A stretch of 64,000 bases of DNA from Herpetosiphon aurantiacus DSM 785 (GCA_000018565.1 CP000875.1:249199-313198); one strand, 5' to 3'. Numbered from the stretch's first letter, positions 16,801-63,917 are shown. Numbers and translations: made by a program. Notes: generated from the sequence alone by a model not told the origin.

Positions 16801-16806
16801 AATAGA

Positions 16807-16890
16807 GGGGTCAGGGGCTAGTGTTCAGTCCATACGACAGGAGTCCTTCGTGGCCTTCGTGGATCAAAACCTGGCCATGACCCCTGACCC
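16807..16890. repeat. Composite hairpin element: GGGGTCAGGGG ... TCCTTCGTGGCCTTCGTGGATC ... CCCCTGACCC
   Basis: An inverted repeat GGGGTCAGGGG (16807-16817) / CCCCTGACCC (16881-16890) encloses an inverted copy of the GATCCACGAAGG unit. It lies immediately downstream of the oxidase gene's stop codon. Confidence 0.6.
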
Positions 16891-38051: not shown

Positions 38052-38111
38052 AAAGTTGCCAATATCGCCTCACAAGATACCATTGTCATTGGTAAATAGC
38101 AAAGGTTGCGA

Positions 38112-38200
38112 GGGATCAGGGGGTTAGGGATCAGGGGCTAGGATGTTTTAACCCAGAGGCGCAGAGTTGGCGAAGGATGAAGGATGAAGGATGCGGGGAT
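38112..38200. repeat. GGGATCAGGGGGTTAGGGATCAGGGGCTAGG module plus (GAAGGAT)x3 heptamer run
   Basis: Seen directly. The heptamers are the reverse complement of the CATCCTT runs at 8011-8037 and 20654-20680. Confidence 0.6.
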
Positions 38201-38250
38201 GAAAATAGGTGAGTTTGGGTAAGGTTTTAGGGGTAAGGATTGTCAGCGAT

Positions 38251-38363
38251 CCCTCACCCCCTAGCCCCCGCTCCCGCACGCGAGGCGAGGGGGAACCGTC
38301 CATCATGATGATAGGGAACGCCCCTCGCCCGCCGCAGTGGGCGAGGGGTTGGGGGTGAGGGAC
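38251..38363. repeat. GC-rich nested-palindrome element, copy A (CCCTCACCCCC ... GGGGGTGAGGG with internal CCCCTCGCCC-N8-GGGCGAGGGG)
   Basis: 11-bp terminal inverted repeats and two internal hairpins are seen directly. Five related copies are in the window. Confidence 0.8.
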
Positions 38364-38403
38364 TATACCTTCAATTTCCTTAATAATAGTTGTAAGAATA
38401 AGT

Positions 38404-39135
38404 TTATGCTTTGGATTTATGGCGCAACAACATACCACCAAGCGTAATCAGCCAAAATTGCCAAAGGCTGCCGCTGACCGTCAACATTGGCCCAGCACTA
38501 ATACCGTAGAGTTCGATTAGCGAAACCAACACACTGGCGGCGGCGATCAGCCCGCTATAGCCCAGCCAGCGCGGCAATGTTGTTTGGCGTAGAATCGTCA
38601 AGGCTACGCCCGCCGTCCATAAACCACCAAACAAGGCCACGCCAATTTGCTCGCCAACACCGCCAGCATAATTATTGAAACTAGTGTAAATCACTTCGAT
38701 GGTGGCGCGTAGGTTAGGATCGCTGGTGGCGCTATATTGTTCGGCAAGGGTTGGCATCATCAACAACCAGCGCCCAATCCCCAGCAATTTGGCAAAGCCT
38801 GCCAACATACCCAAGCCAGCCGTAACCCGCATCAAGGCGCTTTCGCTCGCCAGAATTTGCCATAGTAGCAAAGCGATCGGAATAAGCATAGTTGCCGAAA
38901 GGAAATAGGCCGTATAGCCGAGTGCAACTGCCGAGCGTTCTTGTAGAATCAAGGGCAACGATTGCGAAGCTGGATTATCGAGACTGGCAGGCCAATCGAT
39001 TGCGCTGCTGAGCACCAAAAAGGCAACTAGAAACACGCTAAATTGAGCGAAAAGTAATCCGGCTGCCCAGCGATAGGTGCTGGTCATGCTTCGTTCAGTT
39101 TGGTTGGTTGTAGGATAGGCTTTGGTGGCGATCAT
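38404..39135 (-). CDS. Polytopic membrane protein (DUF4386-like), translationally coupled to upstream MerR regulator
   Basis: The protein is hydrophobic and multi-TM. The ATG at 39135 has AAGGAA 5 nt upstream and lies 1 nt after the MerR stop. Confidence 0.45.
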   Translation of the reverse strand: MIATKAYPTTNQTERSMTSTYRWAAGLLFAQFSVFLVAFLVLSSAIDWPASLDNPASQSLPLILQERSAVALGYTAYFLSATMLIPIALLLWQILASESALMRVTAGLGMLAGFAKLLGIGRWLLMMPTLAEQYSATSDPNLRATIEVIYTSFNNYAGGVGEQIGVALFGGLWTAGVALTILRQTTLPRWLGYSGLIAAASVLVSLIELYGISAGPMLTVSGSLWQFWLITLGGMLLRHKSKA

Positions 39136-39136
39136 C

Positions 39137-40000
39137 TTAATTCCTTTCATTATCTCGTAGTTTGATTGGTAGTTGTAATTCAATTACCGCTGGCTCTTGA
39201 ATGCCGCCTTGAGCATTGTGGGCTGGCCCTGAACGATGAAATTCGCGCAGTGGCCCAATCATTTCGTAGTTGTGCAAGCCAACCCAGCCCAACAGCGCCA
39301 AAGCGGCGGCGTGAATTTCGCTAAAACTGCCTTCGAAAGCGAGGGTTGCGGCCAATTCGAGGCTAGGCAGGGTTTGAAACTTGATGTTGCTATCGGGCAA
39401 TTGAGCCATATTGTGCTCGGCCAAACTGACTGCTACTTCGACTCCAATATCGGTTTCGATAAACTCCTCGTTGTGATAGATCGTAATTTCTTGGGCAAGG
39501 ATTGGAATGCGCTGCTGTTGCACTTGTTGATACAGCGATGCATAAAGCCGATGACAGTAATAACCCATTTGATCAAGGCTTGGTACAATCGCTCGCATGC
39601 TGACAATCGGCTCAGCAGCGGTCGATTTGAGCATCATGGCATAGGGCCATGGCTCTTGTTCATGTTCAATTTGGGCCAAGCGAGCACTGACTTCGGCTAG
39701 TTGGGCTTGCTTTTTGGCCAGTTCAGCAGTTAAGCGGGCTTCTTGCAGGCGCAACATCCCACGCAGTTGATCAGCCGAAAGATCATCGTGGTTCAATAAT
39801 TCGCCGATTTGTTGGAGACTTAGCCCCAGGCCATTGAGTGCCACAATGCGATGCAGCCGTGGCAATTGCTCAACTGAGTAGTAACGATAGCCAGTCCATT
39901 GATCAATTTGGTTGGGAATGAGCAAGCCTAATTTGTCGTAATGGCGTAGCATCCGCACCGAAACTTGAGCCAAACGCGAAAATTCACCAATCTTGAACAT
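39137..40000 (-). CDS. MerR-family transcriptional regulator with C-terminal effector-binding (GyrI-like) domain
   Basis: The N-terminal HTH MFKIGEFSRLAQVSVRMLRHYDKLGLL is present. The start is taken at this Met, residue 24 of the track ORF. Confidence 0.75.
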   Translation of the reverse strand: MFKIGEFSRLAQVSVRMLRHYDKLGLLIPNQIDQWTGYRYYSVEQLPRLHRIVALNGLGLSLQQIGELLNHDDLSADQLRGMLRLQEARLTAELAKKQAQLAEVSARLAQIEHEQEPWPYAMMLKSTAAEPIVSMRAIVPSLDQMGYYCHRLYASLYQQVQQQRIPILAQEITIYHNEEFIETDIGVEVAVSLAEHNMAQLPDSNIKFQTLPSLELAATLAFEGSFSEIHAAALALLGWVGLHNYEMIGPLREFHRSGPAHNAQGGIQEPAVIELQLPIKLRDNERN

Positions 40001-40106
40001 AGCAACCATCCTTGTAAATCTGATGTCGTTGATGCTACACCCTATCACAGTGGCAGAGTCAAGCAGCAATTTTTAAAATAGATTTACAGTGTAAGGAGTT
40101 TGAATT

Positions 40107-40616
40107 ATGGCAATCACTATCGATCGGCTGGGGGTTGGCGACGAGGCGATTATTCAACAATTGGCTTTGGATGATGCGCTATTTGGGCTTGAACCTGAAA
40201 CTGATGAACCACTGACCGCGCTTGATGATCAAGCGGCACGCCAATTTTTGGCCAATCCAGCGGTGTTATATTGGGTCGCGCGTGAGGCTGAAATCATTAC
40301 GGGCTTTTTGTACTGTGTGGTTGTGCCGTTGCGCTCAGGCGAAGGTAGTGAGGTCTTGCTCTACGAAATTGGCGTGCATCACCACTGGCGGCGTAAAGGC
40401 ATCGGTCAAGCCCTCTTGCAAACAATGGAAGCATGGATGCGCGAACAGACGATAAGCGCGGTTTGGGTGCTAGCTGATAATCCTGAAGCCGCAAGTTTTT
40501 ATCAGGCCTGCGGCTTTGAGGTTGAGCATGAGCAACCCACATACTTGGTTAAGAACGTAAAGTCTGGGGAGCGGTTGTTGGGGAGCGGGGATCGGAATTT
40601 CACGCAGAATGAATAA
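40107..40616 (+). CDS. GNAT-family N-acetyltransferase
   Basis: The acetyl-CoA binding motif HHHWRRKGIGQALL is present. Confidence 0.7.
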   Translation: MAITIDRLGVGDEAIIQQLALDDALFGLEPETDEPLTALDDQAARQFLANPAVLYWVAREAEIITGFLYCVVVPLRSGEGSEVLLYEIGVHHHWRRKGIGQALLQTMEAWMREQTISAVWVLADNPEAASFYQACGFEVEHEQPTYLVKNVKSGERLLGSGDRNFTQNE

Positions 40617-40620
40617 TATT

Positions 40621-40676
40621 GGCCACGAAGAAACACAAAGAATAGTTCTTCGTGCTCTTCGTGGCCTTCGTGGATC
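40621..40676. repeat. Inverted pair of CACGAAG-type repeat units
   Basis: ggccacgaagaaacacaaag (40621-40640) and cttcgtgctcttcgtggccttcgtggatc (40648-40676) are seen directly. Confidence 0.6.
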
Positions 40677-40681
40677 AAAGC

Positions 40682-43534
40682 TTATTGCCTGCGGGCACGA
40701 TTTTTGGCGGCGCGGAGCCGTTCGAGTGGATCTTCGGCTTCATCAACGGCTTTGGTTGGATTGTTTGGTGTACTTGGTAATGGCGTAGTTGCTGGGTTTT
40801 CTTTGGGCTTAACTTCGCGCTCGCTCTTATCGCTGAACATTTGCTGGCGGGCACGCCCCTTGGCTCCCTGCAAACTGTTCATTGTGGCAGTTGGGGCGGC
40901 AGCAATCGTTTGGCGCTCTTTGCGAGCTGCTTGCAAGGCGGCAAAATCTTTGCGGCGCAAGTTGAGGCGGCGAATTGCGATATCAAGCAACAGCAACACC
41001 AAAGCTGCAAACAACAAGCCCAAATCAATAGGCGTAGCGCGGCGCACTGCATCCAGCGTATGATCAAACGCTTGCATTGGTTGGCTCAAGCTGCGGCCCG
41101 CAGTGGCTTTGGCCAAAGTGCTCAGCAATTCAGGGTTAGATTGGCCTTGGCGATATTCTGGCGAGTAGGGAACAATCAAGCCCAAGGTGCGGGCAAAGGC
41201 TGGCTTGCCGTTTGCATCATTGCCGATCACCTGAATCAAATAGGTGCCAGCAATTGGGCTAGCCACCCGTGCGCGATATTGGCCAGGCCCAACTTCAGCC
41301 AAGGTTGCATCAATCGCCTCGCCAGTTGGCCCGATCAAACGAGCATTGACGTTCATCGCAGTTTGTGGATTGCCCTTCTCGTCGTTGGCAACAATATCAA
41401 TTTGCACGTCGCTGCCAATTAACGAGGCCTCACCACTGACATTATCGTTGCTGATACGTGGCAAAAGCCAACCAACCAACTGCGCCGTGAAGCGTGGAAA
41501 TTCTTCCCATGTGACCCAGTTTGAGGCCCATTTGCCCTTGAGATCGCTCGTCCAAGCGATGCTCCGGCCAAGCCCATATTGCCATTGGGCCAAAATGGGA
41601 GAGCCATCGCTGGCAGTCAAAATAACTTGAGCGTTATCTTTTTCGACTGTGCCGTTATAGCCCAACAAGCTTGGCAAGCCTTCTTGCAAATCGGCCAGCA
41701 CCGGGCTATCGCCAGCATAAGCCGGGGTAAATTGTTCTTCAACGATATAAGTGCCAACCGCCTGAATCGTTTCTTGCAAGAAGATTTGCGGCACTTCTTC
41801 CATCACGCGGGCTGGATAATAACGTCCACCACCCAGCTCAGCATAGCGTTGCAAAGCGTTATCCGAGCCATTACCTGCTGCAACCACCGAGAGCGTAATG
41901 CCATCTTTGTTCATATTTTCGGCGATTGATCCGATATCGGTAGCATGGCCCCAACCATCGGTCAGCAAAATCGCATGTTTGATTTTAGCATCGCTCTGGC
42001 GCAATTGCTCATAGGCAGCGTTCATGCCACTAACCACGTTAGTTTGGCCGCTTGGTGGCACAGGAGCCAAAGCCGCGACAACATCATCTTGGCTGGGCAC
42101 TTTATCGAGTTCAATCGTCCAATGCGCCGAATCATCAAAGGTCACGACACCCAATTTATCGTCTTTGCCCAGCACCGCAGCGGCTTGAGCCACCGCTTCT
42201 TTGGCAATATCGATTTTGCGCGTGCCACCACCTTCACGCGCCGCCATATCGCCACCGTTACAGTGACAAGCATCCATACTGCCCGATTTGTCGATGATAA
42301 ACACCAAAGCAATATCAGGGCGTTGTTGGCGATTGCGCACATCCATATTGACGGGCAAGGCTTCTTCGATGGGGGTGGCCGTGTAGCCACCCACGCCAAA
42401 ACTTTGGCGACCGCCGATCATTGCCAAGCCACGCCCAAGGTCGCCAACATACGAGCGTAATAATTTTTGGGTATCTTGATCGATATCGCGCGACGGCACA
42501 TTCAGCAACAAGACTGCTTCATAATCGCTCAATGCTGCTAAATCGGTGGGCAAGCCAGTGGCTGGAACAACGACTGGTACAAGGTTGGCAGCTTCGAGTG
42601 CTGGCTTGAGCGCACTTGCATCGCCGACTTCGCCTTCAACCAGCAGCACCTTGGGCGGGCCACCAATTTGCACCAACGAAGCCGCCACATTATTTTGGGC
42701 ACGCGTATCGCTGGTTGGCACAACTTGGGCACTATAGCGATGGAAGCCTTGATCGTTGACAACGAGCGTTGTGGTAAAGCTACTCGTGCCAACTGGTAGA
42801 TTGATCGCTTCTTCCAGTACAATTTGCTCATCGGCTCGCCAGCGCAATTGGGCTGATTGGGCGGTATTACTTTCAATCGTGGCGATCAACTGAATTTCTT
42901 GGCCTGAACGGGCGGCTGATGGTGCCCGAAAGGCACTAATTGCCACTTCGGGGTTGCCTTGGCCAATGCCTGTTGGCACAATATCAATTGGCACATTGCG
43001 GCGTTGCGCCAGTGGGATCATCTCCAAGGCGCGGCCACTGTTCTCGCCACCATCAGAGAGCAACACCAAACGTTTTTGGGTATCGGCGGGAAACAGCGCC
43101 AAACCAAGCTGAATTGCTTCGCTAATATCGGTACGCGCAGCAATTGGCACCGATTGAATTGTGCCTAAGCGCTGAATTTCAGAGGGAACCCGCTCAACCA
43201 AAGCGTTTTCGCCAAACACCACGACGGCAGCTTTATCGCCTTCTTGCATGGTTTCGAGCGCTTGGGCAATAAATTGCTCGTTGTTAGAGCGTTGGCCCGG
43301 GGCAATTGAGTCGGAGCTATCGAGCAAAAATACCGTGGTTAGGTTTTGAACTGGTTGGCGTACTTGGGTTCCGGCAAGGCTGCCGATCAAACACAGCAGC
43401 AATAGCGTGCGTAAGCCCAAGGCCCACCAACGGCGTTGGCCTGTGCGACCACGGTTATTGAGCCAGCCCAACAGCCAGACCAGTGGCAGCGCCAGCAAAA
43501 ACCAGAGATATTCTGGTCGGACGAACGATAGCAT
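40682..43534 (-). CDS. Large membrane-anchored protein with two von Willebrand factor A domains (BatB-like)
   Basis: An N-terminal TM, two VWA MIDAS-containing segments (VFLLDSSDSIAP, VFIIDKSGSMD) and a C-terminal TM are present. It sits in a MoxR/DUF58 operon. Confidence 0.7.
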   Translation of the reverse strand: MLSFVRPEYLWFLLALPLVWLLGWLNNRGRTGQRRWWALGLRTLLLLCLIGSLAGTQVRQPVQNLTTVFLLDSSDSIAPGQRSNNEQFIAQALETMQEGDKAAVVVFGENALVERVPSEIQRLGTIQSVPIAARTDISEAIQLGLALFPADTQKRLVLLSDGGENSGRALEMIPLAQRRNVPIDIVPTGIGQGNPEVAISAFRAPSAARSGQEIQLIATIESNTAQSAQLRWRADEQIVLEEAINLPVGTSSFTTTLVVNDQGFHRYSAQVVPTSDTRAQNNVAASLVQIGGPPKVLLVEGEVGDASALKPALEAANLVPVVVPATGLPTDLAALSDYEAVLLLNVPSRDIDQDTQKLLRSYVGDLGRGLAMIGGRQSFGVGGYTATPIEEALPVNMDVRNRQQRPDIALVFIIDKSGSMDACHCNGGDMAAREGGGTRKIDIAKEAVAQAAAVLGKDDKLGVVTFDDSAHWTIELDKVPSQDDVVAALAPVPPSGQTNVVSGMNAAYEQLRQSDAKIKHAILLTDGWGHATDIGSIAENMNKDGITLSVVAAGNGSDNALQRYAELGGGRYYPARVMEEVPQIFLQETIQAVGTYIVEEQFTPAYAGDSPVLADLQEGLPSLLGYNGTVEKDNAQVILTASDGSPILAQWQYGLGRSIAWTSDLKGKWASNWVTWEEFPRFTAQLVGWLLPRISNDNVSGEASLIGSDVQIDIVANDEKGNPQTAMNVNARLIGPTGEAIDATLAEVGPGQYRARVASPIAGTYLIQVIGNDANGKPAFARTLGLIVPYSPEYRQGQSNPELLSTLAKATAGRSLSQPMQAFDHTLDAVRRATPIDLGLLFAALVLLLLDIAIRRLNLRRKDFAALQAARKERQTIAAAPTATMNSLQGAKGRARQQMFSDKSEREVKPKENPATTPLPSTPNNPTKAVDEAEDPLERLRAAKNRARRQ

Positions 43535-43676
43535 AACTTCATCCTAGCAAGGCCAAATGCCAATGGCATCGGGAACCTCTCCATGAACAGCTTGCGCCAG
43601 CAAACGCCGAACTGTTGAACGTTTCGATTTAGACTTCAACTGAATAGCATGAACGCTAAATCATCAGATTGGGTTC

Positions 43677-43757
43677 CCTCACCCCATTTTTCGTGTGAAA
43701 CCCTTGCGCTAAACTCCCCTCTCCCGCCGCAGTGGGAGAGGGGTTGGGGGTGAGGGA
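43677..43757. repeat. GC-rich nested-palindrome element, copy B
   Basis: ccctcacccc...cccctctcccgccgcagtgggagagggg...gggggtgaggg. It is preceded by TCATCAGATTG, as is copy C. Confidence 0.75.
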
Positions 43758-43762
43758 ATTCT

Positions 43763-45667
43763 TTATGCCGCGCTGCGCCGCGCATTCCACCACAGTTTGA
43801 GCCGTGTGAAGGCGCTGCGTTGAGCAAAAACCCATTCGATCAACACAAAAATTAATGCGGCCAAAGCTAACCAACGCCACCACTCTTCACGGCCTGCTTT
43901 GGCTTGGGTGGTTTCACTTGAGCCAACTTGACCACCACCAATTTGGGCAACATCGAGCACCTGAACTGGGGTGATTTTGGCTTCGCTTTCGCGATAGGCA
44001 TTGACCACGTAGCGCTGGGTTTTACTGACCACGCCATCGCGTAGCAATTCGACGCTGTAAATGCCAGCTTGGTTCATCAAACTGCCATCAAAACTAATCA
44101 AGCCATTGTTTGGCGTGGCTTCGTGGGTTTCGCCATCGGGCTGAATCAAGCGCACGCCGCTAATATCATTGGTTACTGCAAAGGCTAATTCTTGATCAGG
44201 CGGCAAAATCGCTGAATCGCCACCAGTGCCAGGTGCTAAATAGCCCACCAAATTGGCAATCAACAAGGGAAATGAAATATTCAACGGCAAATCGGAATCA
44301 TGGGTGTCGAAGCCGAGCACTGCAATTCGTCGCCCATCAACTTCGCCTGCAATTAGCAACGGGCCAGCCGCACTATCGATCACCGTATGCGCCCAAGGGG
44401 CATTTTCGATCCGTGCCGATTTCAAAATATTGACTTCGCCAAGCTCAACATTGCGCAACAATGGATCATCGGTTGGCGCTGGGCGGGGCACTGGTCGATC
44501 CAAACTTCCAGTCACTGAGAAATATTCGGTTGAGCGATAGGGCGCGATAAACAGCAAATTACCAGCGGGTAATGGCTCTGGTAAACTGGCATCGAGTACC
44601 GTCAACAAGGCTGTATCAGTAAAGGTGGCAGTTTCAGTCAGATAGGCGGAAACTTGTACCCGTGGCATCAATCCCAAGGCTGTAGCCAGAAAACGATTGC
44701 CTGGCGTGACAAAACGCACCGGAATTGCATCGCTTGATGGGCGAATTGCCCAAGCCACATCGTCGCTGGGCAGGCTATCACTCCCATCAAGTCGTGCCTC
44801 AACCGTGGTGGCGGTGGCTGGCACATCGATATTGACGGTTTGATCTTGGCCCGGCAAAATTTCGAGATCATAGGCATTGAACAAGGTGCCATCGAGGTTT
44901 ACCAACAAACGCCGTGTAACCCGCTCTTGGCCTTCGTTGGTAACGCGGGCAAAAAAGGTCAACGTGCCTGGCGCTAGTTCGTTCAAGGCAATTGCCGCGA
45001 TCGCTTGATTGTTGTTGCTCGTGCCAACTGGGAAATAGCGAATTTTGGCGGGCAAGGTGGCGCTCATTGGCACGGTTACCTGACCATCGGTCAAAATTGC
45101 CACTTCCGACTCTTCTTCGCGAGCCGCCAATGCCCCAGCCAAACTCAAGGCTTGCGACATATCCGAGCCGCCGCCCAAGCGCAATTCAATGCCTTCGATT
45201 GCATCGCGAATTTCACGGCGATCAGTGGTGGCAGCAGCCGGCACATCAAGCTCGCCGCCAATTGCCATAATTGTGGCGCGTGCGCCATCGGGCAACTGAT
45301 CGACCAAGCGAATTGCTTCAGCTTTAGCGGCCTCAAGCCGATTGGCGGCAACATCGGTTGCGCCCATCGAAGCCGAGCGATCGATAATTACAATGAGATT
45401 TTGCCCACTAACCCCAACGGTTGGACTGAACGGTCGGGCCAGTGCAAACGCCAAAAGCAGGGCAATGAGCAATTGCAGCCAGAGCAACCAATTATGGCGG
45501 AGGCGTTGCCACGGCGCGTTGGCCTCAACATCGCGAACCAATTGATTCCATAAAAAGGTTGACGAAACCGTGCGTTCCTCGCGGCGGAGGCGCAAGATGT
45601 ACATGGCCACAATTCCTGCGAGAACCGTGCCGCCTGCGATAAACATTAATGGTGCAATAAATCCCAT
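43763..45667 (-). CDS. BatA-like VWA-domain membrane protein
   Basis: A BatA-type N-terminus (two TM helices, LRLRREERTVSSTFLWNQL) and a VWA domain (LIVIIDRSASMGATD) are present. Confidence 0.7.
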   Translation of the reverse strand: MGFIAPLMFIAGGTVLAGIVAMYILRLRREERTVSSTFLWNQLVRDVEANAPWQRLRHNWLLWLQLLIALLLAFALARPFSPTVGVSGQNLIVIIDRSASMGATDVAANRLEAAKAEAIRLVDQLPDGARATIMAIGGELDVPAAATTDRREIRDAIEGIELRLGGGSDMSQALSLAGALAAREEESEVAILTDGQVTVPMSATLPAKIRYFPVGTSNNNQAIAAIALNELAPGTLTFFARVTNEGQERVTRRLLVNLDGTLFNAYDLEILPGQDQTVNIDVPATATTVEARLDGSDSLPSDDVAWAIRPSSDAIPVRFVTPGNRFLATALGLMPRVQVSAYLTETATFTDTALLTVLDASLPEPLPAGNLLFIAPYRSTEYFSVTGSLDRPVPRPAPTDDPLLRNVELGEVNILKSARIENAPWAHTVIDSAAGPLLIAGEVDGRRIAVLGFDTHDSDLPLNISFPLLIANLVGYLAPGTGGDSAILPPDQELAFAVTNDISGVRLIQPDGETHEATPNNGLISFDGSLMNQAGIYSVELLRDGVVSKTQRYVVNAYRESEAKITPVQVLDVAQIGGGQVGSSETTQAKAGREEWWRWLALAALIFVLIEWVFAQRSAFTRLKLWWNARRSAA

Positions 45668-45676
45668 ACAATCTAC

Positions 45677-46237
45677 TCACTCTGCTAGCTGTGCGTCAGC
45701 ATGATATTGGGCGAATTGTTGCAACGCTATCTGCTGATCGGCTGGCGATTTAAATGCTCGCTTGGGTATAACAACTACTCGATTGTTGTGAGTAACCAAA
45801 ATAATATGTTCGGCCTCATCTAAAATAGCCTGAATAAAGAGCCATTTAAATTCAACACTCGAAAATGCGTTTATTTGCTGCACATAGGTCGGATAAACTG
45901 TTAATCTGACTGGCGATTCAAAATTGGCTTTTTCAAGCTGATAACTTTTTTTGAAATAATCTAAAGTGAATTCGCGCATGTCGCGATTGGTATAAATTAC
46001 CCAAATTCCAATTAAGATTAAGCCGAATACAATCAACCATACTGATAGTCGATCGAATTGAAACAATGCAGCAACGAAAAATGCTAACATACCTATACCT
46101 AAAACATAGAGTAATAGCACATAATAGCGATTTAAATTAAGTGCTTCTTGATATTTTGGTATATGCTTAAAGATTGATAAATTAGCTTCCTGATAATCGT
46201 TAAAATTAAGTTGATAATTTAATTCAGTTGGTTGCAT
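45677..46237 (-). CDS. YcxB-like small membrane protein, AT-rich (about 35% GC)
   Basis: Two TM helices are followed by a soluble domain. Strongly AT-biased codons make it inconsistent with neighbouring genes. Confidence 0.45.
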   Translation of the reverse strand: MQPTELNYQLNFNDYQEANLSIFKHIPKYQEALNLNRYYVLLLYVLGIGMLAFFVAALFQFDRLSVWLIVFGLILIGIWVIYTNRDMREFTLDYFKKSYQLEKANFESPVRLTVYPTYVQQINAFSSVEFKWLFIQAILDEAEHIILVTHNNRVVVIPKRAFKSPADQQIALQQFAQYHADAQLAE

Positions 46238-46266
46238 CGAATAACTTTCAAGCTGAAATATATAAT

Positions 46267-47151
46267 TTAACGAACAATTTGCCGTTCGCGTAGCACTGAA
46301 ACCAGCAATGATTCCAAAGGCAAGCTGGTATCAACAAAAATATAGTTGATGCCACGAGTTGTACAAAAATGCTCAACTTCTTCGCGCCATGCCTGCAAAC
46401 GTTCAACATAACGCTGCAATAAATCGAGATCAGCGCTGACATCGAGCGATTCGCCACCCTCAACATCGAGCAATTTCAAATCGCCCTCGAATGGCGGGTT
46501 CAGCTCATCAGGCGAGAGCACATGCAGCACGGTAATTTCAAATGGGCGGCGGCCAAGCGTGCGCAAGGCTTCTTCCCAATCGGGCGTGAGCAAATCGCTG
46601 CATAACAACAATGGCCCAGCTACCCGCGCCGTTTGAATATAGCGGCGGCTGGCTTGCAACAAACTAGTATTGCCGTTGCCTTTGAGTCGATTCAGCAAAT
46701 TGAATAATGGCGGCACGCCTGCCCGCCCACGCCCTGCCGGAATCCGCTGCTCGTTGCCACCGCCAAAACTGGTGACTTGCGCCCGATCAAGGCTGGCTAA
46801 GGCGATATAGCCTAACGCGCCCGCTGCCTGAGCGGCATAGCGCAACTTGTTTGGCTCGCCCCAATCCATCGAAGCACTGGTATCGATCAGCAGGTGCAGG
46901 GTAATTTCTTCTTCGGCTACAAACAGCTTGAGAAAGAATTTCTCCAAACGCGCATATAAATTCCAGTCGATCTGGCGAAAATCATCGCCAGGCGTGTAGG
47001 GCTTGAAGTCGGCATATTCAACCGATGAGCCACGGCGGGGCGAACGGCGTTCGCCCTGCATCTGGCCAGCAATATTGCGGCGCGTCAGCAGCGCCAAACG
47101 ATCCAATTGTTTTAAGAATTGTGGTTCAAATAGCGCTGCTTGTTCGCTCAT
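46267..47151 (-). CDS. DUF58-domain protein (MoxR-associated)
   Basis: The DUF58 core GERRSPRRGSSVEYADFKPYTPGDDFRQIDWN is present. The start is taken at MSEQAALFEP, which has GGAGAT upstream. Confidence 0.75.
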   Translation of the reverse strand: MSEQAALFEPQFLKQLDRLALLTRRNIAGQMQGERRSPRRGSSVEYADFKPYTPGDDFRQIDWNLYARLEKFFLKLFVAEEEITLHLLIDTSASMDWGEPNKLRYAAQAAGALGYIALASLDRAQVTSFGGGNEQRIPAGRGRAGVPPLFNLLNRLKGNGNTSLLQASRRYIQTARVAGPLLLCSDLLTPDWEEALRTLGRRPFEITVLHVLSPDELNPPFEGDLKLLDVEGGESLDVSADLDLLQRYVERLQAWREEVEHFCTTRGINYIFVDTSLPLESLLVSVLRERQIVR

Positions 47152-47178
47152 TGCAACATCTCCACACTCAACCAACGA

Positions 47179-48890: not shown

Positions 48891-48910
48891 CCAAACTCCT
48901 TATCAACAAA

Positions 48911-57192: not shown

Positions 57193-58353
57193 GTGAAACG
57201 TTGGTTACTGAGTTTTTTAACAATTGGTTCGTTGGTTTTGACTGGCTGTGGTGCGGCGGCTACGCCAACCGCTGAAACCGCGATTCAGCCTACTCCGGCC
57301 ACCACGGCTGCCGCTGATGTTACGCCTGCAGCAACCCAAGCCACCCAAGCGCCGACCGATAGCGGCCAGTTTGCCGGCCAAACCTTGGTGGTGGTTTCGC
57401 ACGATAGTTTTGCAATCAGCAGCGAAGTTATCTCAGGCTTTGAGCAAATGACTGGCGCGACCGTCCAAATTCTAGAATCGGGCGATGCTGGCGAGGCGCT
57501 CAATAAGAGCATTTTGGCCAAAGGCGCACCCTTGGGCGATGTGTTGTATGGGGTCGATAATACCTTTTTGAGTCGGGCGCTTGATGCTGATATTTTCGAG
57601 GCCTACGCTGCCAAGAATCTCGAGCAAATTCCTGCTGAATTGAAGCTCGATAGCCAAAATCGGGTTTCGCCCGTTGATGTTGGCTATGTCACGATCAATT
57701 ACGATAAAGCTGCCTTGGCCGAGGCTGGCCTGAGCTTGCCAACCGATTTGCGCGATTTAACCAAGCCTGAGTGGAAAGGCAAGTTGGTGGTTGAAAATCC
57801 GGCAACGTCATCGCCTGGCTTATCATTTATGTTGGCGACGATTGCCCACTTTGGCGAGAGCAGCGATTATACCTGGCGCAACTTCTGGAGCGACCTGCGA
57901 GCCAATGAGATCAAAGTGGCTAGCGGTTGGGAAGAAGCCTACTATGGCGATTTTAGCGGAGCCAGTGATGGTCAATATCCGTTGGTCGTCAGCTATGCGA
58001 CCAGCCCTGCTGCCGAAGTTATCTTTGCGACAACGCCCTTGACCGATGCACCGACTGGCAATTTGTTGTTACCTGGTGGCGCATTCCAGCAAATTGAATT
58101 TGTGGGCTTGCTAAAAGATGCCAAAAACCCTGAATTGGGCAAAGCTTGGATTGACTATATGCTGAGCGACACCTTCCAGAGCGATATTGGCGGACAGATG
58201 TTTGTGTACCCAGCCCTGCCTAGCGCTAAAGTGCCAGCTGAATTTACTCAATATGCCCAAGTGCCTAGCAATGTAACGACGCTTGCGCCAGCCGAGATTG
58301 CTGCCAACCGCGAGCGCTGGCTCAACGAATGGCAAGAAACCGTCCTACGCTAA
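57193..58353 (+). CDS. thiB: ABC transporter substrate-binding lipoprotein, thiamine/TPP-binding (ThiB/TbpA-like)
   Basis: Lipobox LTGCGA is present. It is a periplasmic-binding-protein fold of the ThiB / iron(III)-binding family and is controlled by a TPP riboswitch. The GTG start has AAGGAG 9 nt upstream. Confidence 0.7.
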   Translation: MKRWLLSFLTIGSLVLTGCGAAATPTAETAIQPTPATTAAADVTPAATQATQAPTDSGQFAGQTLVVVSHDSFAISSEVISGFEQMTGATVQILESGDAGEALNKSILAKGAPLGDVLYGVDNTFLSRALDADIFEAYAAKNLEQIPAELKLDSQNRVSPVDVGYVTINYDKAALAEAGLSLPTDLRDLTKPEWKGKLVVENPATSSPGLSFMLATIAHFGESSDYTWRNFWSDLRANEIKVASGWEEAYYGDFSGASDGQYPLVVSYATSPAAEVIFATTPLTDAPTGNLLLPGGAFQQIEFVGLLKDAKNPELGKAWIDYMLSDTFQSDIGGQMFVYPALPSAKVPAEFTQYAQVPSNVTTLAPAEIAANRERWLNEWQETVLR

Positions 58354-58356
58354 ACC

Positions 58357-58402
58357 AAAACATCCCCTGCAACTTTAATTAAGTGTTGCAGGGGATGTTT
58401 AT
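58357..58402. terminator. Bidirectional terminator hairpin (AACATCCCCTGCAAC-N10-GTTGCAGGGGATGTT) between convergent thiB and the 58418 gene
   Basis: A 15-bp perfect stem with A-rich and T-rich flanks is seen directly. Confidence 0.65.
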
Positions 58403-58417
58403 GAGCAAAAATGCAGT

Positions 58418-58990
58418 TTAGTCGCCAGTGGTTTTGACTGCTGGCCAATCGCCAACCATCAACCCGCCAACAACTCCAATTAATGCACCGAAGCCACCAC
58501 CGAGCAAATATTCGCCAGTGACCGTGGCCAAACCCAAGCCGATCAACACACAGAAGGCAACCCCCGCAACAATTCGCTTGAGCCGACCAAGCATAGTCAG
58601 CGAAATAATCGAATTTGCGGTGATCAAATCGTTGCCATTGCTGGCGGGAGCAGCTGGTTTTGGGGCAACAGGTGCAGCCGGAGCAGCAGCAGGCGTGGCG
58701 GCAACCACAGGTGCAGCAGCAGGAGTTGGGGTTGCAGCAACAGCGACTGGGGCAACAGGTGCATCGCTTGCAGCAGCTTTTTTGGCAGCCCGAATTGCTT
58801 CCAACCGAGCCTTTTTATCATCCGACATATTAGCGCCAACCGCAGCGCTGGCTGGAGCCTCGGTTGTTGCCGCTACGACCGGCGCAGCAGGTGCAGGTGC
58901 AGGCTCTTCGCCCGCAGCAGCCTTTTTGGCGGCATTGGCTGCGCGAATCGCATCGAGCCGCGCCTTTTTTTCATCGCTTGTATCAGCCAT
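58418..58990 (-). CDS. Ala/Pro-rich protein with internally duplicated KKARL(D/E)AIRAA motif and C-terminal TM anchor
   Basis: Two copies of DEKKARLDAIRAANAAKKAAA / DDKKARLEAIRAAKKAAA are separated by Ala/Pro-rich linkers. A C-terminal hydrophobic helix is followed by KTTGD. Confidence 0.45.
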   Translation of the reverse strand: MADTSDEKKARLDAIRAANAAKKAAAGEEPAPAPAAPVVAATTEAPASAAVGANMSDDKKARLEAIRAAKKAAASDAPVAPVAVAATPTPAAAPVVAATPAAAPAAPVAPKPAAPASNGNDLITANSIISLTMLGRLKRIVAGVAFCVLIGLGLATVTGEYLLGGGFGALIGVVGGLMVGDWPAVKTTGD

Positions 58991-59372
58991 GTGCGTCCCT
59001 CAGATAGCAAAGATTAAATTGATCGACATTATTCCGATAGCACGGTATTCCCAATCGCAAACAAGCCAGTAATCCTCAACTCAATGAGTTAAGGCTTCCA
59101 ACTCGCGCTGTATTGTATCATGCTTGGTTGGTCTTGGTGCAGCAATTTGGCGAGGAAAATGAGTTCCGTTGAGCCAGCCGTGCCGTTCCACCCAAGAGCA
59201 CGGCTGACCTTTTCGGATTGAGAGGAAACGCACCTGTAGTATGCCGCCAACAGATGAGTATTAGGTGAGGATGATGTCAATAAGCGATTAACGTTAATCG
59301 CCATTTGTTTAACCAAATTCTCACCATCTGAGCTATACTTGGGCGGTTGTGGTTCGTCAAAGGAGACATTCA

Positions 59373-60860
59373 ATGGGCTTGGTCGAAAGTATTATGAATT
59401 TCAGCGAAGGTCGGCGCACCGAAGTTGTGCACGCCATTCGTGATGCAATTACGGCTGTTGCCGGCGTGCAATTGCTCGATGTTCAATCCGACGCTGATCA
59501 TAATCGCACGGTGATTAGTTTTGCGGGCGAGGCTGAAGCAGTTGGCGAAGCTGCTTTCCAAGCAACCCGCACCGCCCAAGGCTTAATTAATTTGGATACC
59601 CATCGCGGCGAACACCCACGCATCGGCGCGACCGATGTCTTGCCATTTGTGCCACTTGGCCAAACCACGATGAAACAGTGTGTGGCCTTGGCTCGCAAAG
59701 TTGGCAAGCGCATTGGTGATGAATTGGGGATTGCGGTTTATTTGTATGAAGAGGCTGCGACCCGCCCCGAACGTCAAAATTTGGCCGATGTGCGTAAGGG
59801 CGAATATGAGGCTTGGCGCAAAGCCATTGGGGTTGATCCGGCGCGGGAGCCAGATTTTGGCCCAGCCGTGGCGACACCTGCAGGCGCAACCGTGGTTGGG
59901 GCACGCCAGCCATTGATTGCCTACAACATCTATTTAAATACCACCGATGTAGAAATTGCCAAAAAAATCGCTAAATCGATTCGCTATCTTGGCGGTGGCT
60001 TGCGCTATGTCAAAGCTTTGGGCTTGTTGGTCGATGGTCGCGCTCAAATCTCGATGAACTTGGTTAATTTCCGTGGAACGCCAATTCATCGAGTGCAGGA
60101 GTTAGTACGCGCCGAGGCCATGCGCTATGGCGTGACGATTACTGAGGGCGAAGTTATTGGGCTTGTGCCGCAAGATGCGCTGGTTGATGCTGCTGAGCAT
60201 TATCTGCAACTCAATCGTTTTCGCCGCGACCAAGTGCTTGAATCGAAGTTGGCCGCGCCAAGTGCTGGCGATGACTGGTTGCCAACCAACACGTTCCAAG
60301 CCTTTGCAGCTGGGACACCAACGCCTGGTGGTGGTTCGGCGGCGGCCTTAGCTGGGGCTTTGGCTGGCTCGTTGGGCCAAATGGTGGCTAATTTAACCGT
60401 CAGCCGCAAAAAATATGCAGCGGTCAAGCCCAGCATGCAAGCGGCCTTGGAGCGCTTGAGCGAAGCAACCACCAGCTTGGGCAAATTGGCTTTGTCCGAT
60501 AGTGCCGCATTTAACGCCATCAGCGTCACGCGTAAATTGCCTGAAGAGCAGGCTGACCGAGCGCAACAATTGGCGGCGGCGATTGTGCATGCCTGTGAAG
60601 TTCCCTTGCAAGTGGCCCAACAAGCTGCCAGTTTGTTTGATGATTTATATCTGTTGGCGACCCAAGGCAACGTCAATGCCCGCACCGATGCCCAAGTCGG
60701 CGGCTATTTGGCCTATGCCGCCGTCAATGGGGCTGGCTTAAATGTGTTGGTCAATCTTGGCGATTTAAGCGATGCTCAATTGCGTGAACAATTCAGCGCG
60801 GCGGTTGCCAAGCTGCGCCAACAAGCTGAGCAAGGCTTGCAAAAACTGACGACACTCTAG
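59373..60860 (+). CDS. ftcD: Bifunctional glutamate formimidoyltransferase / formimidoyl-THF cyclodeaminase
   Basis: The N-terminal formiminotransferase domain (ESIMNFSEGRR ... ) and the C-terminal cyclodeaminase domain (PTPGGGSAAALAGALAGSLGQMVANLT) are present. AAGGAG lies 7 nt upstream of ATG 59373. Confidence 0.8.
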   Translation: MGLVESIMNFSEGRRTEVVHAIRDAITAVAGVQLLDVQSDADHNRTVISFAGEAEAVGEAAFQATRTAQGLINLDTHRGEHPRIGATDVLPFVPLGQTTMKQCVALARKVGKRIGDELGIAVYLYEEAATRPERQNLADVRKGEYEAWRKAIGVDPAREPDFGPAVATPAGATVVGARQPLIAYNIYLNTTDVEIAKKIAKSIRYLGGGLRYVKALGLLVDGRAQISMNLVNFRGTPIHRVQELVRAEAMRYGVTITEGEVIGLVPQDALVDAAEHYLQLNRFRRDQVLESKLAAPSAGDDWLPTNTFQAFAAGTPTPGGGSAAALAGALAGSLGQMVANLTVSRKKYAAVKPSMQAALERLSEATTSLGKLALSDSAAFNAISVTRKLPEEQADRAQQLAAAIVHACEVPLQVAQQAASLFDDLYLLATQGNVNARTDAQVGGYLAYAAVNGAGLNVLVNLGDLSDAQLREQFSAAVAKLRQQAEQGLQKLTTL

Positions 60861-60921
60861 GCAGGGTTATGCTACAATGAGCACATAGATCAACTTCTGC
60901 GTATCGCGAGGAGATTTTTCA

Positions 60922-61080
60922 ATGGCTCGTTGGCTTCTGATTGTCGTTGGCTTAGCTGCTTTGGTGCGCGTCATCGACTTACAACGTAAACTTGATGCCG
61001 CCCGCTCACGTGGCGATATGTACCGCGACATCTCAGCCCGCCTTGATCGTCAATTGGCGGATTTGCAAAAGCAAGCGTAA
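60922..61080 (+). CDS. Small (52 aa) single-TM protein, not in the ORF track (below length cutoff)
   Basis: The ATG has GAGGAG 9 nt upstream. The encoded MARWLLIVVGLAALVRVIDLQRKLDAARSRGDMYRDISARLDRQLADLQKQA has a TM followed by an amphipathic helix. Confidence 0.3.
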   Translation: MARWLLIVVGLAALVRVIDLQRKLDAARSRGDMYRDISARLDRQLADLQKQA

Positions 61081-61120
61081 GCTTAAATGGCATGGTTCGT
61101 TGGATTAGCAACGATTCCAT

Positions 61121-61220
61121 CCCTCACCCCCTAGCCCCCTCTCCCGCACACGAGGCGAGGGGGAACCACTGTGTCGAACTCCCTTCTCCTGCTTGGTGGG
61201 AGAAGGGTTGGGGATGAGGG
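61121..61220. repeat. GC-rich nested-palindrome element, copy E (degenerate right arm GGGGATGAGGG)
   Basis: ccctcaccccctagccccctctcccgcacacgaggcgagggggaacc ... cccttctcctgcttggtgggagaagggttggggatgaggg is seen directly. Confidence 0.7.
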
Positions 61221-61441
61221 AACACAGGCAGAGCGTAATTCAATCCACCATGCCACCTTCGTTCTTGGCAATTATCAGCCGCTCAATAATCCTTGTTTGG
61301 ATTGTTGAGCGGCTGGTGGTTTAATCGGTCTTGCGGCGGAGCTATCAGTCGGCCATCAGGCGCTCGTCAGATCGGCATACTGGCTTAGCATGGAGTTATT
61401 AAGTACGCTGCCTCTGGAAACACAAGCCCATGGAGGTCGCC

Positions 61442-61579
61442 ATGCTGACGACACTATTTTTTGTTGCGCTCCTGCTTGTGGCATTAGCCGCATTGCCGTA
61501 TGTCTCACGCTCAACGCCAGTGGTCGAGGATGATTCCGACGAGCCACAATTACGTATGAAGCCGACGCGCCAACGCTAA
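61442..61579 (+). CDS. Small (45 aa) putative TM peptide overlapping the 3-prime end of the CCA-enzyme gene on the opposite strand
   Basis: GGAGG lies 5 nt upstream of the ATG. The encoded MLTTLFFVALLLVALAALPYVSRSTPVVEDDSDEPQLRMKPTRQR has one TM. This is a weak call. Confidence 0.2.
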   Translation: MLTTLFFVALLLVALAALPYVSRSTPVVEDDSDEPQLRMKPTRQR

Positions 61580-63103
61580 GGCGCTCTCACGGTCGGTCAC
61601 TTCGCCAGCCGCTTGAGCTTCACGAATTGCCTCAAGCAACAGCCCAATCTGTGGGCCGGCTGCTAAACCTAGCTCTTGCATCAGCGTGTGTCCATCGAGT
61701 AAGGGCACACGTTTTTGTTCGGCCTCAGCATCCCAATAAAACCCAAGCATCGCATCTGTCCAAGCGGCTTGGTAGGCCCAATGATGTTCTTGGAGCAACG
61801 GCCCGCGCGTCGCCATATGGTCGGCCAAGGCGTGCAGTAAGGTATCGACGGCGCTTTCTTTTAAATCGCGAAAGAAGCGATAGGCCGCTTTGGCCGTGGT
61901 TTCAGGCTGCGAGTAAAGCTGACCAGGCCGCATATGCCCCGCAATCACCTTGCACATATACTCAATCTCTTGGTTGCTAAATCGCAGCCGCTGATACACT
62001 GCTCGGGCAATGTCTGCCCCAATCGTTTGATGTTCATGAAACGAGACGCTGCCATCGGGCTTATCAACTCGTGTCGCTGGCTTCGCACAATCGTGCAGCA
62101 GAATCGCCATTTTCCAGAGGGCGCGATTGCTGGCAGTGTGGCCAATTGGCTGTTGCATTTGGGCAACAACCTGCTCGGCCCATTGCAGTTGCAGGGTCAA
62201 GTTGGGTAGCATGCGCAAGGTTGCGGGTTGCTGAAAAAAGGCTGGTGGATGCCAATCGTCGGCAAGTGCTGGCGGTGCTGGTGGCACTGGCTGTTGATCA
62301 TGTTCCAACTGGGCAAGCAGCCATTCGCCAGCAGTAATCGTTTCGAGCGAATGCTCCCACACATCCAAAAAATGAATATTGGGCTGGGTGTGGTGGTACA
62401 TTGGGCGAATCTCAGGAATTAAGCTTGGCAAAAGATTAACCCGATCTAAATAACGCAGCCAGCTAGCACTCCAACGAGTGGCTAAAATTGCCAATAGCTC
62501 AACTCGTACCCGTTCAACCGCCACTTGGTTGATCAATTCGGCGTGGGCTATGATCGCCTGATCGGTTGCTGGATCAAGTTGCCAGCCGAGTTGAGCAGCG
62601 ATCCGCACCGCTCGCAGCATACGCAATGGATCGTTGGCTAGGGCATTGGCTTGCACCATGCGCAGCGTACCAGTCGCAATATCGTTCAATCCAGCATGAG
62701 GATCGATGATTTGGCCAAGTTGCGCTTGCTCGTAAAGCGGCGCGGCCATGGCATTAATCGTAAAATCGCGGTCGGTCAAATCGCTGGTTAAATCAGCAGC
62801 CCGCAAATGAGCAAGATCAAGATACTTGCCATCGGCCAAGACCACCCGCCCAATATCACGCTCAGCATCGAGCACCACCAAACTGGCGTTGAGTTGCTTG
62901 GCAAGGCTTTGGGCTAAGCCAATCGCTGGTTGATTGACCACCAAATCGACATCATGCAACGGGCGGCCAATCACTAAATCGCGCAATGTACCGCCGACGA
63001 CCCAGGCTGGTTGAGAACCTAAAAGGTGTTTAAGCACGCTCAAGGCTTGGCGTAAACTAAGATAGGCCGAGCTTTGGGGCAACTGAATATGACTAATCTT
63101 CAT
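61550..63103 (-). CDS. cca: CCA-adding tRNA nucleotidyltransferase (Pol-beta NTase head, HD domain)
   Basis: The NTase motif GGTLRDLVIGRPLHDVDLVV and an HD-domain region (HD...LLHDCAK) are present. Confidence 0.8.
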   Translation of the reverse strand: MKISHIQLPQSSAYLSLRQALSVLKHLLGSQPAWVVGGTLRDLVIGRPLHDVDLVVNQPAIGLAQSLAKQLNASLVVLDAERDIGRVVLADGKYLDLAHLRAADLTSDLTDRDFTINAMAAPLYEQAQLGQIIDPHAGLNDIATGTLRMVQANALANDPLRMLRAVRIAAQLGWQLDPATDQAIIAHAELINQVAVERVRVELLAILATRWSASWLRYLDRVNLLPSLIPEIRPMYHHTQPNIHFLDVWEHSLETITAGEWLLAQLEHDQQPVPPAPPALADDWHPPAFFQQPATLRMLPNLTLQLQWAEQVVAQMQQPIGHTASNRALWKMAILLHDCAKPATRVDKPDGSVSFHEHQTIGADIARAVYQRLRFSNQEIEYMCKVIAGHMRPGQLYSQPETTAKAAYRFFRDLKESAVDTLLHALADHMATRGPLLQEHHWAYQAAWTDAMLGFYWDAEAEQKRVPLLDGHTLMQELGLAAGPQIGLLLEAIREAQAAGEVTDRESALALARRLHT

Positions 63104-63180
63104 ACAAAACTCACGTTGGGCAGCTATGCTCTATAATTGTGGGATAATTGAACCCACCAATGGCGAAAGGACGAAAGGCA

Positions 63181-63747
63181 ATGAGTTTGACCGTAACGCA
63201 AACCGCGCTTGATGGCGTTGTCATTATTAAACCAAGCGTGTTTGCCGATGAACGCGGCTTCTTCCTTGAAACATACCATCAGATCAAGTTTGCTGACCTC
63301 GGTCTGCCTACCGATTTTGTGCAAGATAATCACTCCCGTTCCAAGCAAGGGGTACTGCGCGGGCTGCATTATCAAGATGAGCGCCAGCCAATGGCAAAAC
63401 TTGTGCGTTGTAGTGTTGGTAGCATTTTTGATGTTGCTGTTGATTTGCGCGTTGGCTCGCCGACCTTTGGCAAATGGGTTGGAGTTGAGCTAAGCGCCGA
63501 TAACTTTTTACAATTTCTGATTCCTTCGGGCTTTGGCCATGGCTTTGTGGTGCTTTCGGAGTTTGCCGAGGTGCAATATCGTTGTACAGGGTTGTATGCG
63601 CCCGAAACCGAGGGTGCGGTGCGCTGGAATGACCCACAAATTGGGATTGAGTGGCCAATCAGTGAGCCAACGCTCTCAGGTCGTGATCAAGCGGCAATGA
63701 GCCTCGCCGACTATCTTGAGAATCCTGCGTTTCGTTATCGTGGCTAG
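63181..63747 (+). CDS. rfbC: dTDP-4-dehydrorhamnose 3,5-epimerase
   Basis: The cupin-fold RmlC sequence is present (GVVIIKPSVFADERGFFLETY ... QDNHSRS ... LRGLHYQ). The start is taken at ATG 63181 (MSLTVTQ). Confidence 0.85.
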   Translation: MSLTVTQTALDGVVIIKPSVFADERGFFLETYHQIKFADLGLPTDFVQDNHSRSKQGVLRGLHYQDERQPMAKLVRCSVGSIFDVAVDLRVGSPTFGKWVGVELSADNFLQFLIPSGFGHGFVVLSEFAEVQYRCTGLYAPETEGAVRWNDPQIGIEWPISEPTLSGRDQAAMSLADYLENPAFRYRG

Positions 63748-63753
63748 ACGTTC

Positions 63754-63917
63754 CCTCACCCTCAACCCCTCTCCCACGGCGGCGGGAGAGGGGAGTTCCA
63801 GTCGTCAATGATGGCGGGTTCCCCCTCGCCTCGCGTGCGGGAGAGGGGACTAGGGGGTGAGGGCATGAACATCGACGGCGATTCCACCGTACCTTTGTTA
63901 AAAACCTACCCTTGTAA
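63754..63917. repeat. GC-rich nested-palindrome element, copy F (inverted orientation) plus 58-bp module shared with copy D
   Basis: ccctcaccctcaacccctctcccacggcggcgggagagggg ... ccccctcgcctcgcgtgcgggagaggggactagggggtgaggg is followed by catgaacatcgacgg...aaaacctacccttgtaa. The latter is the reverse complement of the ends of 56806-56863. Confidence 0.75.

Follow-up and report, generated by a model that had tools for sequence, protein, structure and literature searches.

What kind of DNA are the GC-rich nested palindromes that lie between genes at six loci in Herpetosiphon aurantiacus DSM 785? The loci, here called A to F, fall within a 64,000-nucleotide stretch of the genome (CP000875.1:249199-313198), which was analyzed at its full length and is referred to below as the window. 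Five proteins encoded in it match H. aurantiacus DSM 785 proteins exactly. An original prediction, made from the sequence alone, described them as a six-copy family of elements bounded by 11-nt terminal inverted repeats (TIRs) and likened them to MITEs (miniature inverted-repeat transposable elements) or to repetitive extragenic palindromes (REPs) and bacterial interspersed mosaic elements (BIMEs). The comparisons described here suggest that a non-autonomous Herpetosiphon mobile element accounts for all six loci, as copies or as fragments. The family probably spreads as a ~170-nt MITE that is moved in trans and contains a core of the BoxC type, which would then drive the rearrangements that yield armless and composite copies.

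The existence of the family does not depend on this interpretation. Allowing at most one mismatch, the end motif CCCTCACCCCC has 14 matches in the window, compared with 0.57 expected from shuffled sequences, none of which reached 14. The matches pair into the six loci, with the sole exception of one weak match at 38119. The six core units, nested palindromes of 81-111 nt spanning 38.2-63.9 kb, align with 47 invariant columns and a mean column identity of 76%. A repeat finder recovered the same repeat families (D3, D6, D8, D9 and I1-I9, with copy F as I2 and I4). Every occurrence in the window of hairpin words of the core type lies inside the six loci, and the same scan found no copy between 1 and 38 kb. 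Single-stranded folding of each unit is more stable than that of its shuffles (z = -3.1 to -6.5, Watson-Crick folding only). All six copies are intergenic, as had been claimed, five of them adjoin gene 3′ ends, and both orientations occur; any effect on mRNA 3′ ends would be a putative one. Such open reading frames (ORFs) as span the copies all run through the repeats and are apparently spurious, including the anticipated frame PHPQPLSHCGGRG, which can be read directly from the sequence. The loci, their folding and their standing as a modular, genuine intergenic repeat family were thus all predicted correctly, with positions 1-2 nt off in places.

The full core runs from a C-tail, CCCTCACCCCC, through 3 nt, hairpin 1 (CCCCCTCTCCC, loop, GGCGAGGGGG), a spacer of 20-30 nt and hairpin 2 (CCCCTCGCCC, GCCGCAGT, GGGAGAGGGG) to TT and a G-tail, GGGGGTGAGGG. 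All of it derives from one mirror-symmetric 9-mer, GGGAGAGGG, together with its complement and a one-A-to-T variant. The underlying half-unit, CCCTCNCCC-loop-GGGAGAGGG-NN-GGGTGAGGG, is made up, in order, of a C-rich arm with its loop, the homopurine arm GGGAGAGGG(G) and, 2-3 nt further on, the G-tail as a near mirror of that arm; two halves form an inverted pair with tails outward.

This anatomy matches a motif that has been given three names: BoxC (Bachellier/Hofnung, 1990s), PIT (Hoyne and Maher 2000) and TMECO (Holder et al. 2015, PMC4666352). The TMECO pattern is CCCTCNCCC-N3-6-GGGNGAGGG-N3-GGGNGAGGG (PMC4666352), and its three 9-mer blocks occur in order in every half-unit of the window. 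Loop 1 is 8-9 nt instead of 3-6, and the stems carry one or two extra G/C, leaving 2-3 nt for loop 2. Set against reversed GGGGTGAGGG, the arm GGGAGAGGG(G) gives only the triplets allowed in purine-motif geometry, G·G-C, A·A-T and T·A-T. Judged from its sequence, the core half-unit is therefore the BoxC/PIT/TMECO intrastrand-triplex motif, and the 11-nt segments CCCTCACCCCC/GGGGGTGAGGG, originally read as TIRs, correspond to its third strand instead. Among 246 unique motifs from all fetched loci, the purine block keeps its A in 236, and the pyrimidine block varies from T to G (pairing states T/A 184, G/A 45, G/C 6 and T/C 4). The G.A mismatch, CCCTCGCCC opposite GGGAGAGGG, is the "A mm" type of E. 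coli and the commonest state in the window hairpins. That the purine arm persists where pairing is lost points to a constraint acting on the purine strand or on the word, and not on a simple hairpin. Each half obeys the triplex rule, is a four-run G-quadruplex (G4) motif and belongs to a long palindrome, so that a hairpin or cruciform, an intrastrand purine triplex and a G-quadruplex are all structures that the core can in principle form. For an equivalent sequence of Klebsiella, which is listed as a G4, melting temperatures have been measured (PMC11170735). Of 16 canonical G4 motifs in the window (four G runs of at least 3, loops of 1-7 nt), 11 are ends of these elements. Short G-rich repeats of another kind, GGGGATYGGGGMT/GGGGCTAGGG, lie at 6346-6380, 12123-12162, 16806-16830, 20565-20588, 38100-38137 and 40564-40598, and some of these are also canonical G4 motifs.

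The boundaries of the mobile unit lie outside the core. When all Herpetosiphon half-units were listed with 70 nt of outer flank, conserved arms became apparent, TGTACTGGTACATTGCGTTAACCACCGTCTGATC on the hairpin-1 side and TGTACTGGTTCATTGGATTGGCAACCAAGGACATG on the hairpin-2 side. Two such arms of ~34 nt enclose the core and end in 15-nt TIRs, TGTACTGGTTCATTG/CAATGAACCAGTACA, located ~34 nt outside the core boundary, to give a non-coding full unit of 164-196 nt (~170). Nine full-length Herpetosiphon copies of 164-172 nt, among them C and E of the window, align end to end with a mean column identity of 84%. TIRs were seen in nine Herpetosiphon copies; within the window they have decayed in C and E, and A, D and F have none. 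Perfect 6-bp duplications flank six of the nine full copies in sister species (CATAGC, ACTAAT, TCTAAC, TCTATG, CCTAAA and TTTATG). Two further sister-species copies match at 5 of 6 bp, and all are centred on TA (NNTANN). Shells were curated, and duplication junctions checked, by hand. A shell with TA-centred 6-bp duplications is the classical mark of MITEs that a DDE transposase mobilizes, and in Herpetosiphon the proposed MITE behaviour holds. Duplications at the boundary formed by CCCTCACCCCC are, by contrast, at chance level in 147 units from many genomes, where the flanks extend the palindrome instead, and the 11-nt repeat is therefore rejected as a transposon end. The sequence TCATCAGATTG, which does precede B and C as described, is part of the outer arm and neither a target site nor an insertion signature. 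Heptamer tandem repeats (AGAACAT/AGAGCAT) surround many of the Herpetosiphon MITE copies and supply NNTANN sites (window 51716-51733; L117, for example, at 1460-1477 and 1648-1670).

With core and shell defined, the window contains the following parts, in coordinates of the whole stretch.

38217..38250, + strand: possible diverged GGGTAGGTTTT module by the C-tail of A, read against the D/F module with low confidence.
38251..38361, + strand: copy A core, complete, with C-tail, hairpin 1, spacer, hairpin 2 and G-tail; fold z = -5.7.
43623..43645, - strand: remnant (last ~20 nt) of a tautomerase gene beside B, from alignment to sister species.
43647..43675, + strand: remnant of one MITE outer arm beside B, by homology to the arm consensus; contains TCATCAGATTG.
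43676..43756, + strand: copy B core, with C-tail (1 mismatch), filler, hairpin 2 and G-tail; hairpin 1 absent.
51734..51901, + strand: copy C, full-length decayed MITE, with left arm 51734-51764, core 51765-51866 and right arm 51867-51901.
56777..56804, + strand: solo hairpin at locus D, of hairpin-2 type by sequence, without tail.
56805..56863, + strand: 59-nt module CTAGCTTACAAGGGTAGGTTTT...CGATGTTCATG at locus D, shared with locus F.
56864..56974, + strand: copy D core, complete; fold z = -6.5.
61088..61255, + strand: copy E, full-length decayed MITE, with arms 61088-61120 and 61221-61255 and core 61121-61220.
63753..63863, - strand: copy F core, complete and inverted, starting 5 nt after the stop of a dTDP-4-dehydrorhamnose epimerase gene.
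63864..63917, - strand: second copy of the GGGTAGGTTTT...CGATGTTCATG module, at locus F, joined to the C-tail side of the core.

Copy A has no recognizable MITE arms and lies 43 nt downstream of the stop of a DUF4386 gene, upstream of ribF, and B lies 7 nt downstream of the BatA gene stop. Copy C, between convergent FKBP and sulfate-permease genes, is without the first bases of its left TIR and ends on the right in ...AACCATTACA. Copy E, between convergent FTCD and CCA-adding-enzyme genes, has the diverged TIR TGGCATGGT/ACCATGCCA. Copy D occupies a divergent promoter region, 58 nt upstream of a thiamine pyrophosphate (TPP) riboswitch (57032-57134) that itself precedes a gene for a thiamine ABC binding protein. 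In place of arms, D and F (perhaps A as well) carry the GGGTAGGTTTT module on the C-tail side; on alignment, the shared D/F module with conserved ends that had been noticed from the sequence is real.

Comparison of all six intergenic regions across syntenic regions of five genomes (H. aurantiacus, the 95%-identical strain L121, H. geysericola, H. llansteffanensis and H. giganteus, with the distant homologue L122 excluded as non-syntenic) shows that every locus is polymorphic, through filled and empty sites, indels or rearrangement. At A, C and F, H. aurantiacus alone carries an element; site A is empty in H. geysericola and H. giganteus, and H. llansteffanensis has a variant near it. Locus E is filled at the identical site in H. 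aurantiacus and H. llansteffanensis, in the latter with the CCTAAA duplication on its flanks, and empty in L121, H. geysericola and H. giganteus. The indel there is ~170 nt, which exceeds the tail-bounded unit. At locus B, three sister species have an intact 129-aa tautomerase gene, flanked by the BatA and VWA genes (L244 11922-12311, L246 11917-12306, L248 11922-12311); in H. aurantiacus a 390-nt deletion has reduced this gene to its last ~20 nt, and the element stands in its place. At locus D, the tail and module between the two hairpins are inverted in H. aurantiacus relative to L121, whose module also lacks its middle 32 nt; H. giganteus has a single motif at this locus, and the other genomes have a different repeat. 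Metagenome contigs differ in the single motif, with 1 to 4 tandem copies of it at orthologous sites. Raised local genome variability has likewise been reported for TMECO loci (PMC4666352). Public assemblies also break at such repeats: the Logan contig L002 ends inside element E (~window 61138) and L249 at locus F, within another repeat.

Other repeats share some of these sites. A second interspersed repeat, GATCCACGAAGnnCACGAAGnnCACGAAG, occurs in both orientations at 6377-6413, 6481-6511, 7856-7896, 16837-16876, 20511-20549 and 40647-40679; in sister species of Herpetosiphon it is found at loci A, C and D as well. A ~220-nt MITE of sister species (L244 3497-3720, L248 3143-3367, L247 19135-19350) has the same TGTACTGG ends around a different GC-hairpin core, CCACCCTTCCGTCCCGCC...GGCGGGAAACGCAGGGGG, and this core is found alone at locus F in L245, L247 and L249.

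The favoured mechanism combines transposition with later rearrangement. The ~170-nt unit would transpose as a MITE that duplicates 6 bp of an NNTANN target, moved in trans by a putative DDE transposase encoded elsewhere. After insertion, the palindromic core, prone to triplex and G4 formation, may promote local rearrangement, whereby segments invert between hairpin arms, neighbouring DNA is deleted, arms or one hairpin are lost, or the number of tandem copies changes. Such rearrangement would explain why, in the window, C and E are decayed, B has a single arm and A, D and F have none.

A transposase was sought on several fronts. Neither the window ORFs of at least 120 aa nor the window gene tables include a transposase gene, whether of the Y1/RAYT (REP-associated tyrosine transposase) type that had been proposed as cognate or of any other. 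Clustering of 3111 ORFs from 118 loci in many phyla gave no linked enzyme, the only shared proteins being kinases, ABC transporters and spurious repeat ORFs. Long TIR pairs in Thiotrichaceae, considered as candidate insertion sequences (ISs), proved to be neighbouring MITEs around ordinary genes. The TGT ends and the 6-bp TA-centred duplication recall elements of the IS481 and IS21 types, which are possible partners; no IS of this kind with matching ends was found in the window or the fetched loci. The NCTAGN target reported for IS481 is similar, and that of the Herpetosiphon element, NNTANN, is looser.

Several observations weigh against this account. Target duplications are lacking in all six copies of the window. 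Only C and E have both arms; A, D and F may have arrived otherwise. Searches of the window and of ~2 Mb of fetched loci for a full-length IS bounded by any of six TIR types found none. The shared occupancy of locus E in two species could reflect ancestry followed by loss and not recent insertion. The TMECO triplex is stable in vitro but went undetected in vivo in E. coli (PMC4666352). Armless cores, moreover, are common elsewhere, for example in Thermoanaerobaculia and E. coli, and have no duplication at their boundary; the shell therefore cannot be the only route by which the core spreads.

A scan of one genome per species for tail...tail pairs at 59-89 nt returned at least 118 stretches, nearly all with the two-hairpin architecture and a few that are unrelated palindromes; such collection scans were seeded by our own patterns, and their counts are lower bounds. 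Within Chloroflexota the core occurs in Oscillochloris, Herpetosiphon, Roseiflexaceae, Thermomicrobiales, Anaerolineae and Ktedonobacterales. Beyond this phylum it occurs in Acidobacteriota, Armatimonadota, Cyanobacteriota, Planctomycetota, Myxococcota, Bacteroidota and Spirochaetota, and in Gamma- and Betaproteobacteria, including Thiomargarita. Stems are conserved across these taxa, and each lineage has loops and spacers of its own. In a metagenome sample with less bias, single motifs numbered 75, tails-outward pairs 30 (including 10 in which one hairpin carries both tails), tails-inward pairs 2 and tandem arrays ~10. A plasmid search with the full unit found cores on plasmids of Pseudanabaena and Cupriavidus and no match on a Herpetosiphon plasmid; a scan of viral contigs gave 7 matches, with no sign that phages are the main carriers. 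The same core resides in at least five different shells, of which the following were characterized together with their duplications.

Herpetosiphon shell: ends TGTACTGG; 6-bp duplication.
Thiotrichaceae/Thiomargarita shell: ends GGTAGTGATGCAATGTGGGTGATAT (GGTAGTGATG); 8-bp duplications AATTTTTT, AAGACTTG and CAAAATTT.
Oscillochloris and related, two shell types: CAGGGCTGTTGCAA... and CAATACTTTWCGAATAAG; 10-bp duplications AAAAGACAGC, ACATCTATCC, GCTTTAAGCG, GGGCTAAAGC and GATCTAAACC.
Oscillatoria shell: ends GGGAGCATCCC; 9-bp duplication.

By our estimate, ~0.01 duplications of 8-10 bp would be expected by chance over all armed units. The reverse arrangement, one shell with an unrelated core, is seen in Herpetosiphon and Thiotrichaceae, and in the latter the shell also occurs with a single-motif core. 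One stretch of 3 kb in a Thiotrichaceae metagenome-assembled genome (MAG), L024, contains four MITEs whose GGTAGTGATGCAATG ends are identical (1917-2081, 2125-2287, 3543-3638 and 4829-4993), two with an unrelated core, one with a motif pair and one with a single motif. An observation of a different kind comes from an Oscillochloris MAG (L041 509-2836), in which a 776-codon stop-to-stop ORF reads in frame through an element (...PSPPAPLPHGERG...LPLSRSGRGGWGVRA...), possibly an in-gene insertion like the Rickettsia palindromic elements.

These exchanges of core and shell raise the alternative that the core spreads by a route of its own, perhaps through a single-strand enzyme of HUH/Y1 type or by template switching into hairpin loops or palindrome centres without duplication, in which case the Herpetosiphon arms would be MITEs that the core had invaded. 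We regard this as unlikely, although it would account for the lack of core-boundary duplications in the 147 units, for armless copies in the window (A, D, F), in Thermoanaerobaculia and in E. coli, for one core in many shells and one shell with several cores, and for tandem copy-number variation. Against it, no conserved 4-5-nt target lies beside the core across phyla, the ORF clustering revealed no enzyme family, and the full 170-nt unit has inserted independently, which shows that core and shell do move together.

A second alternative takes the copies not for mobile DNA but for cis-acting signals under selection, in RNA or DNA: bidirectional terminators, for instance, or mRNA 3′-end stabilizers or protein-binding sites. 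The placement of five of the six copies just after stop codons or between convergent genes, the very stable predicted hairpins, the conservation of 9-mer words across phyla and the retention of the purine arm where pairing is lost are all compatible with such a role. It is nevertheless improbable, given that the copies come and go among sister species, and even between H. aurantiacus and its 95%-identical strain, while the flanking genes are conserved, and that both orientations occur. The narrower reading as intrinsic terminators is rejected: the flanks contain no T tracts, and a terminator scan of the window called none of the elements. An Rfam scan of the whole window identified only the TPP riboswitch and a T-box leader (6567-6810, upstream of a class I (Trp/Tyr) tRNA synthetase gene), so that no known RNA family extends over the elements. 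The E. coli motif was also without promoter or terminator activity in published tests (PMC4666352).

Least probable is a REP/BIME or REPIN (REP doublet) family mobilized by a RAYT, which the inverted doublets of ~100-nt imperfect palindromes, mosaic modules and intergenic placement resemble in architecture, but whose defining GTAG or CGTC tag (PMC3733652) is missing at the hairpin feet (which have AACG, AACT or TAG before them and GGTT or GGAA after them), whose transposition, of RAYT/IS200 type, does not make the 6-bp target duplications of the full units, and whose Y1 transposase is found neither among window ORFs of at least 120 aa nor in the ORF clusters of the 118 loci. The REP/BIME likeness that had been proposed thus survives as an analogy in its mosaic structure and inverted doublets.

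Two further features were noted in the window. A 233-aa ORF with a LAGLIDADG_3 homing-endonuclease-like domain (32324-33025, - strand) lies between rpoB (33095-36748) and rpoC (27675-32306). A second ORF (49189-50901, - strand), encoding a 570-aa protein with no Pfam match in precomputed gene tables of sister species, contains in-frame tandem repeats of 9 nt and 12 nt at 49556-49760.

The core and the MITEs are each already known. BoxC/PIT/TMECO has been known for ~30 years and is abundant in enterobacteria and cyanobacteria, and its main survey found no function (PMC4666352). The range of the motif now takes in Chloroflexota and no fewer than eight further phyla, with the tails-outward pair as its prevailing form. 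Classical MITEs with clean target duplications carry it in several lineages, which bears on the published statement that it has no link to mobile elements (PMC4666352), and single loci tie it to an inversion and to a gene deletion between sister genomes. Neither the tails-outward pair as the main form across many phyla nor a BoxC-type core inside several unrelated MITE shells with clean duplications was found described in the searchable literature. It is possible, though we advance it only tentatively, that the BoxC-type pair is a portable palindromic core repeatedly entering, or recruited by, unrelated MITE families. If so, it would either have its own mechanism of insertion at palindrome centres or confer an advantage in transposition, for example by folding back to join the ends, and either outcome would provide the first mechanistic handle on a cross-phylum spread of BoxC/PIT repeats that has been unexplained since the 1990s. 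The spread of the motif is now directly testable. Practical effects include assembly breaks, spurious ORFs (…PHPQPLSHCGGRG…) and most of the G4 motifs in the window.

Among known systems, REP, BIME and REPIN families resemble the Herpetosiphon units in their inverted doublets of GC-rich imperfect palindromes, their mosaic association with short modules and their location at gene 3′ ends, and differ in that the Herpetosiphon full units have target duplications and no GTAG/CGTC tag, with no RAYT seen in the window. Bacterial MITEs such as Nezha of Anabaena/Nostoc, Correia/NEMIS and ERIC (enterobacterial repetitive intergenic consensus) are closer to the full unit: they, too, are ~170 nt, non-coding and strongly folding, with TIRs, fixed-length duplications, filled and empty sites and no internal transposase. 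Unlike these, the Herpetosiphon element has as its interior not the remnant of a deleted IS but a motif pair common to unrelated shells in other phyla, whereas ~98% of bacterial MITE clusters are genus-specific and none is of mixed phylum at 95% identity (PMC11602168). The closest relative of the core is BoxC/PIT/TMECO itself, with 3610 copies in 262 proteobacterial genomes, strictly intergenic location and many further G/C-rich triplex motifs in cyanobacteria (PMC4666352). Both have the blocks CCCTC[T/G]CCC, GGGAGAGGG and GGGTGAGGG in the same order and the same G.A-mismatch allele, are intergenic and multi-copy, occur singly or as inverted pairs with loops less conserved than stems, and are tied to local genome rearrangement. 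Stems are 9 nt in E. coli and 10-11 nt in Herpetosiphon, loop 1 is 3-6 nt and 8-9 nt, respectively, and the tails of paired motifs point inward in E. coli but outward in Herpetosiphon, with a spacer of 20-30 nt. Whereas the E. coli study reported no association with transposons, phages or plasmids (PMC4666352), the motif in Herpetosiphon, a member of the Chloroflexota, is enclosed in a MITE with TIRs and target duplications.

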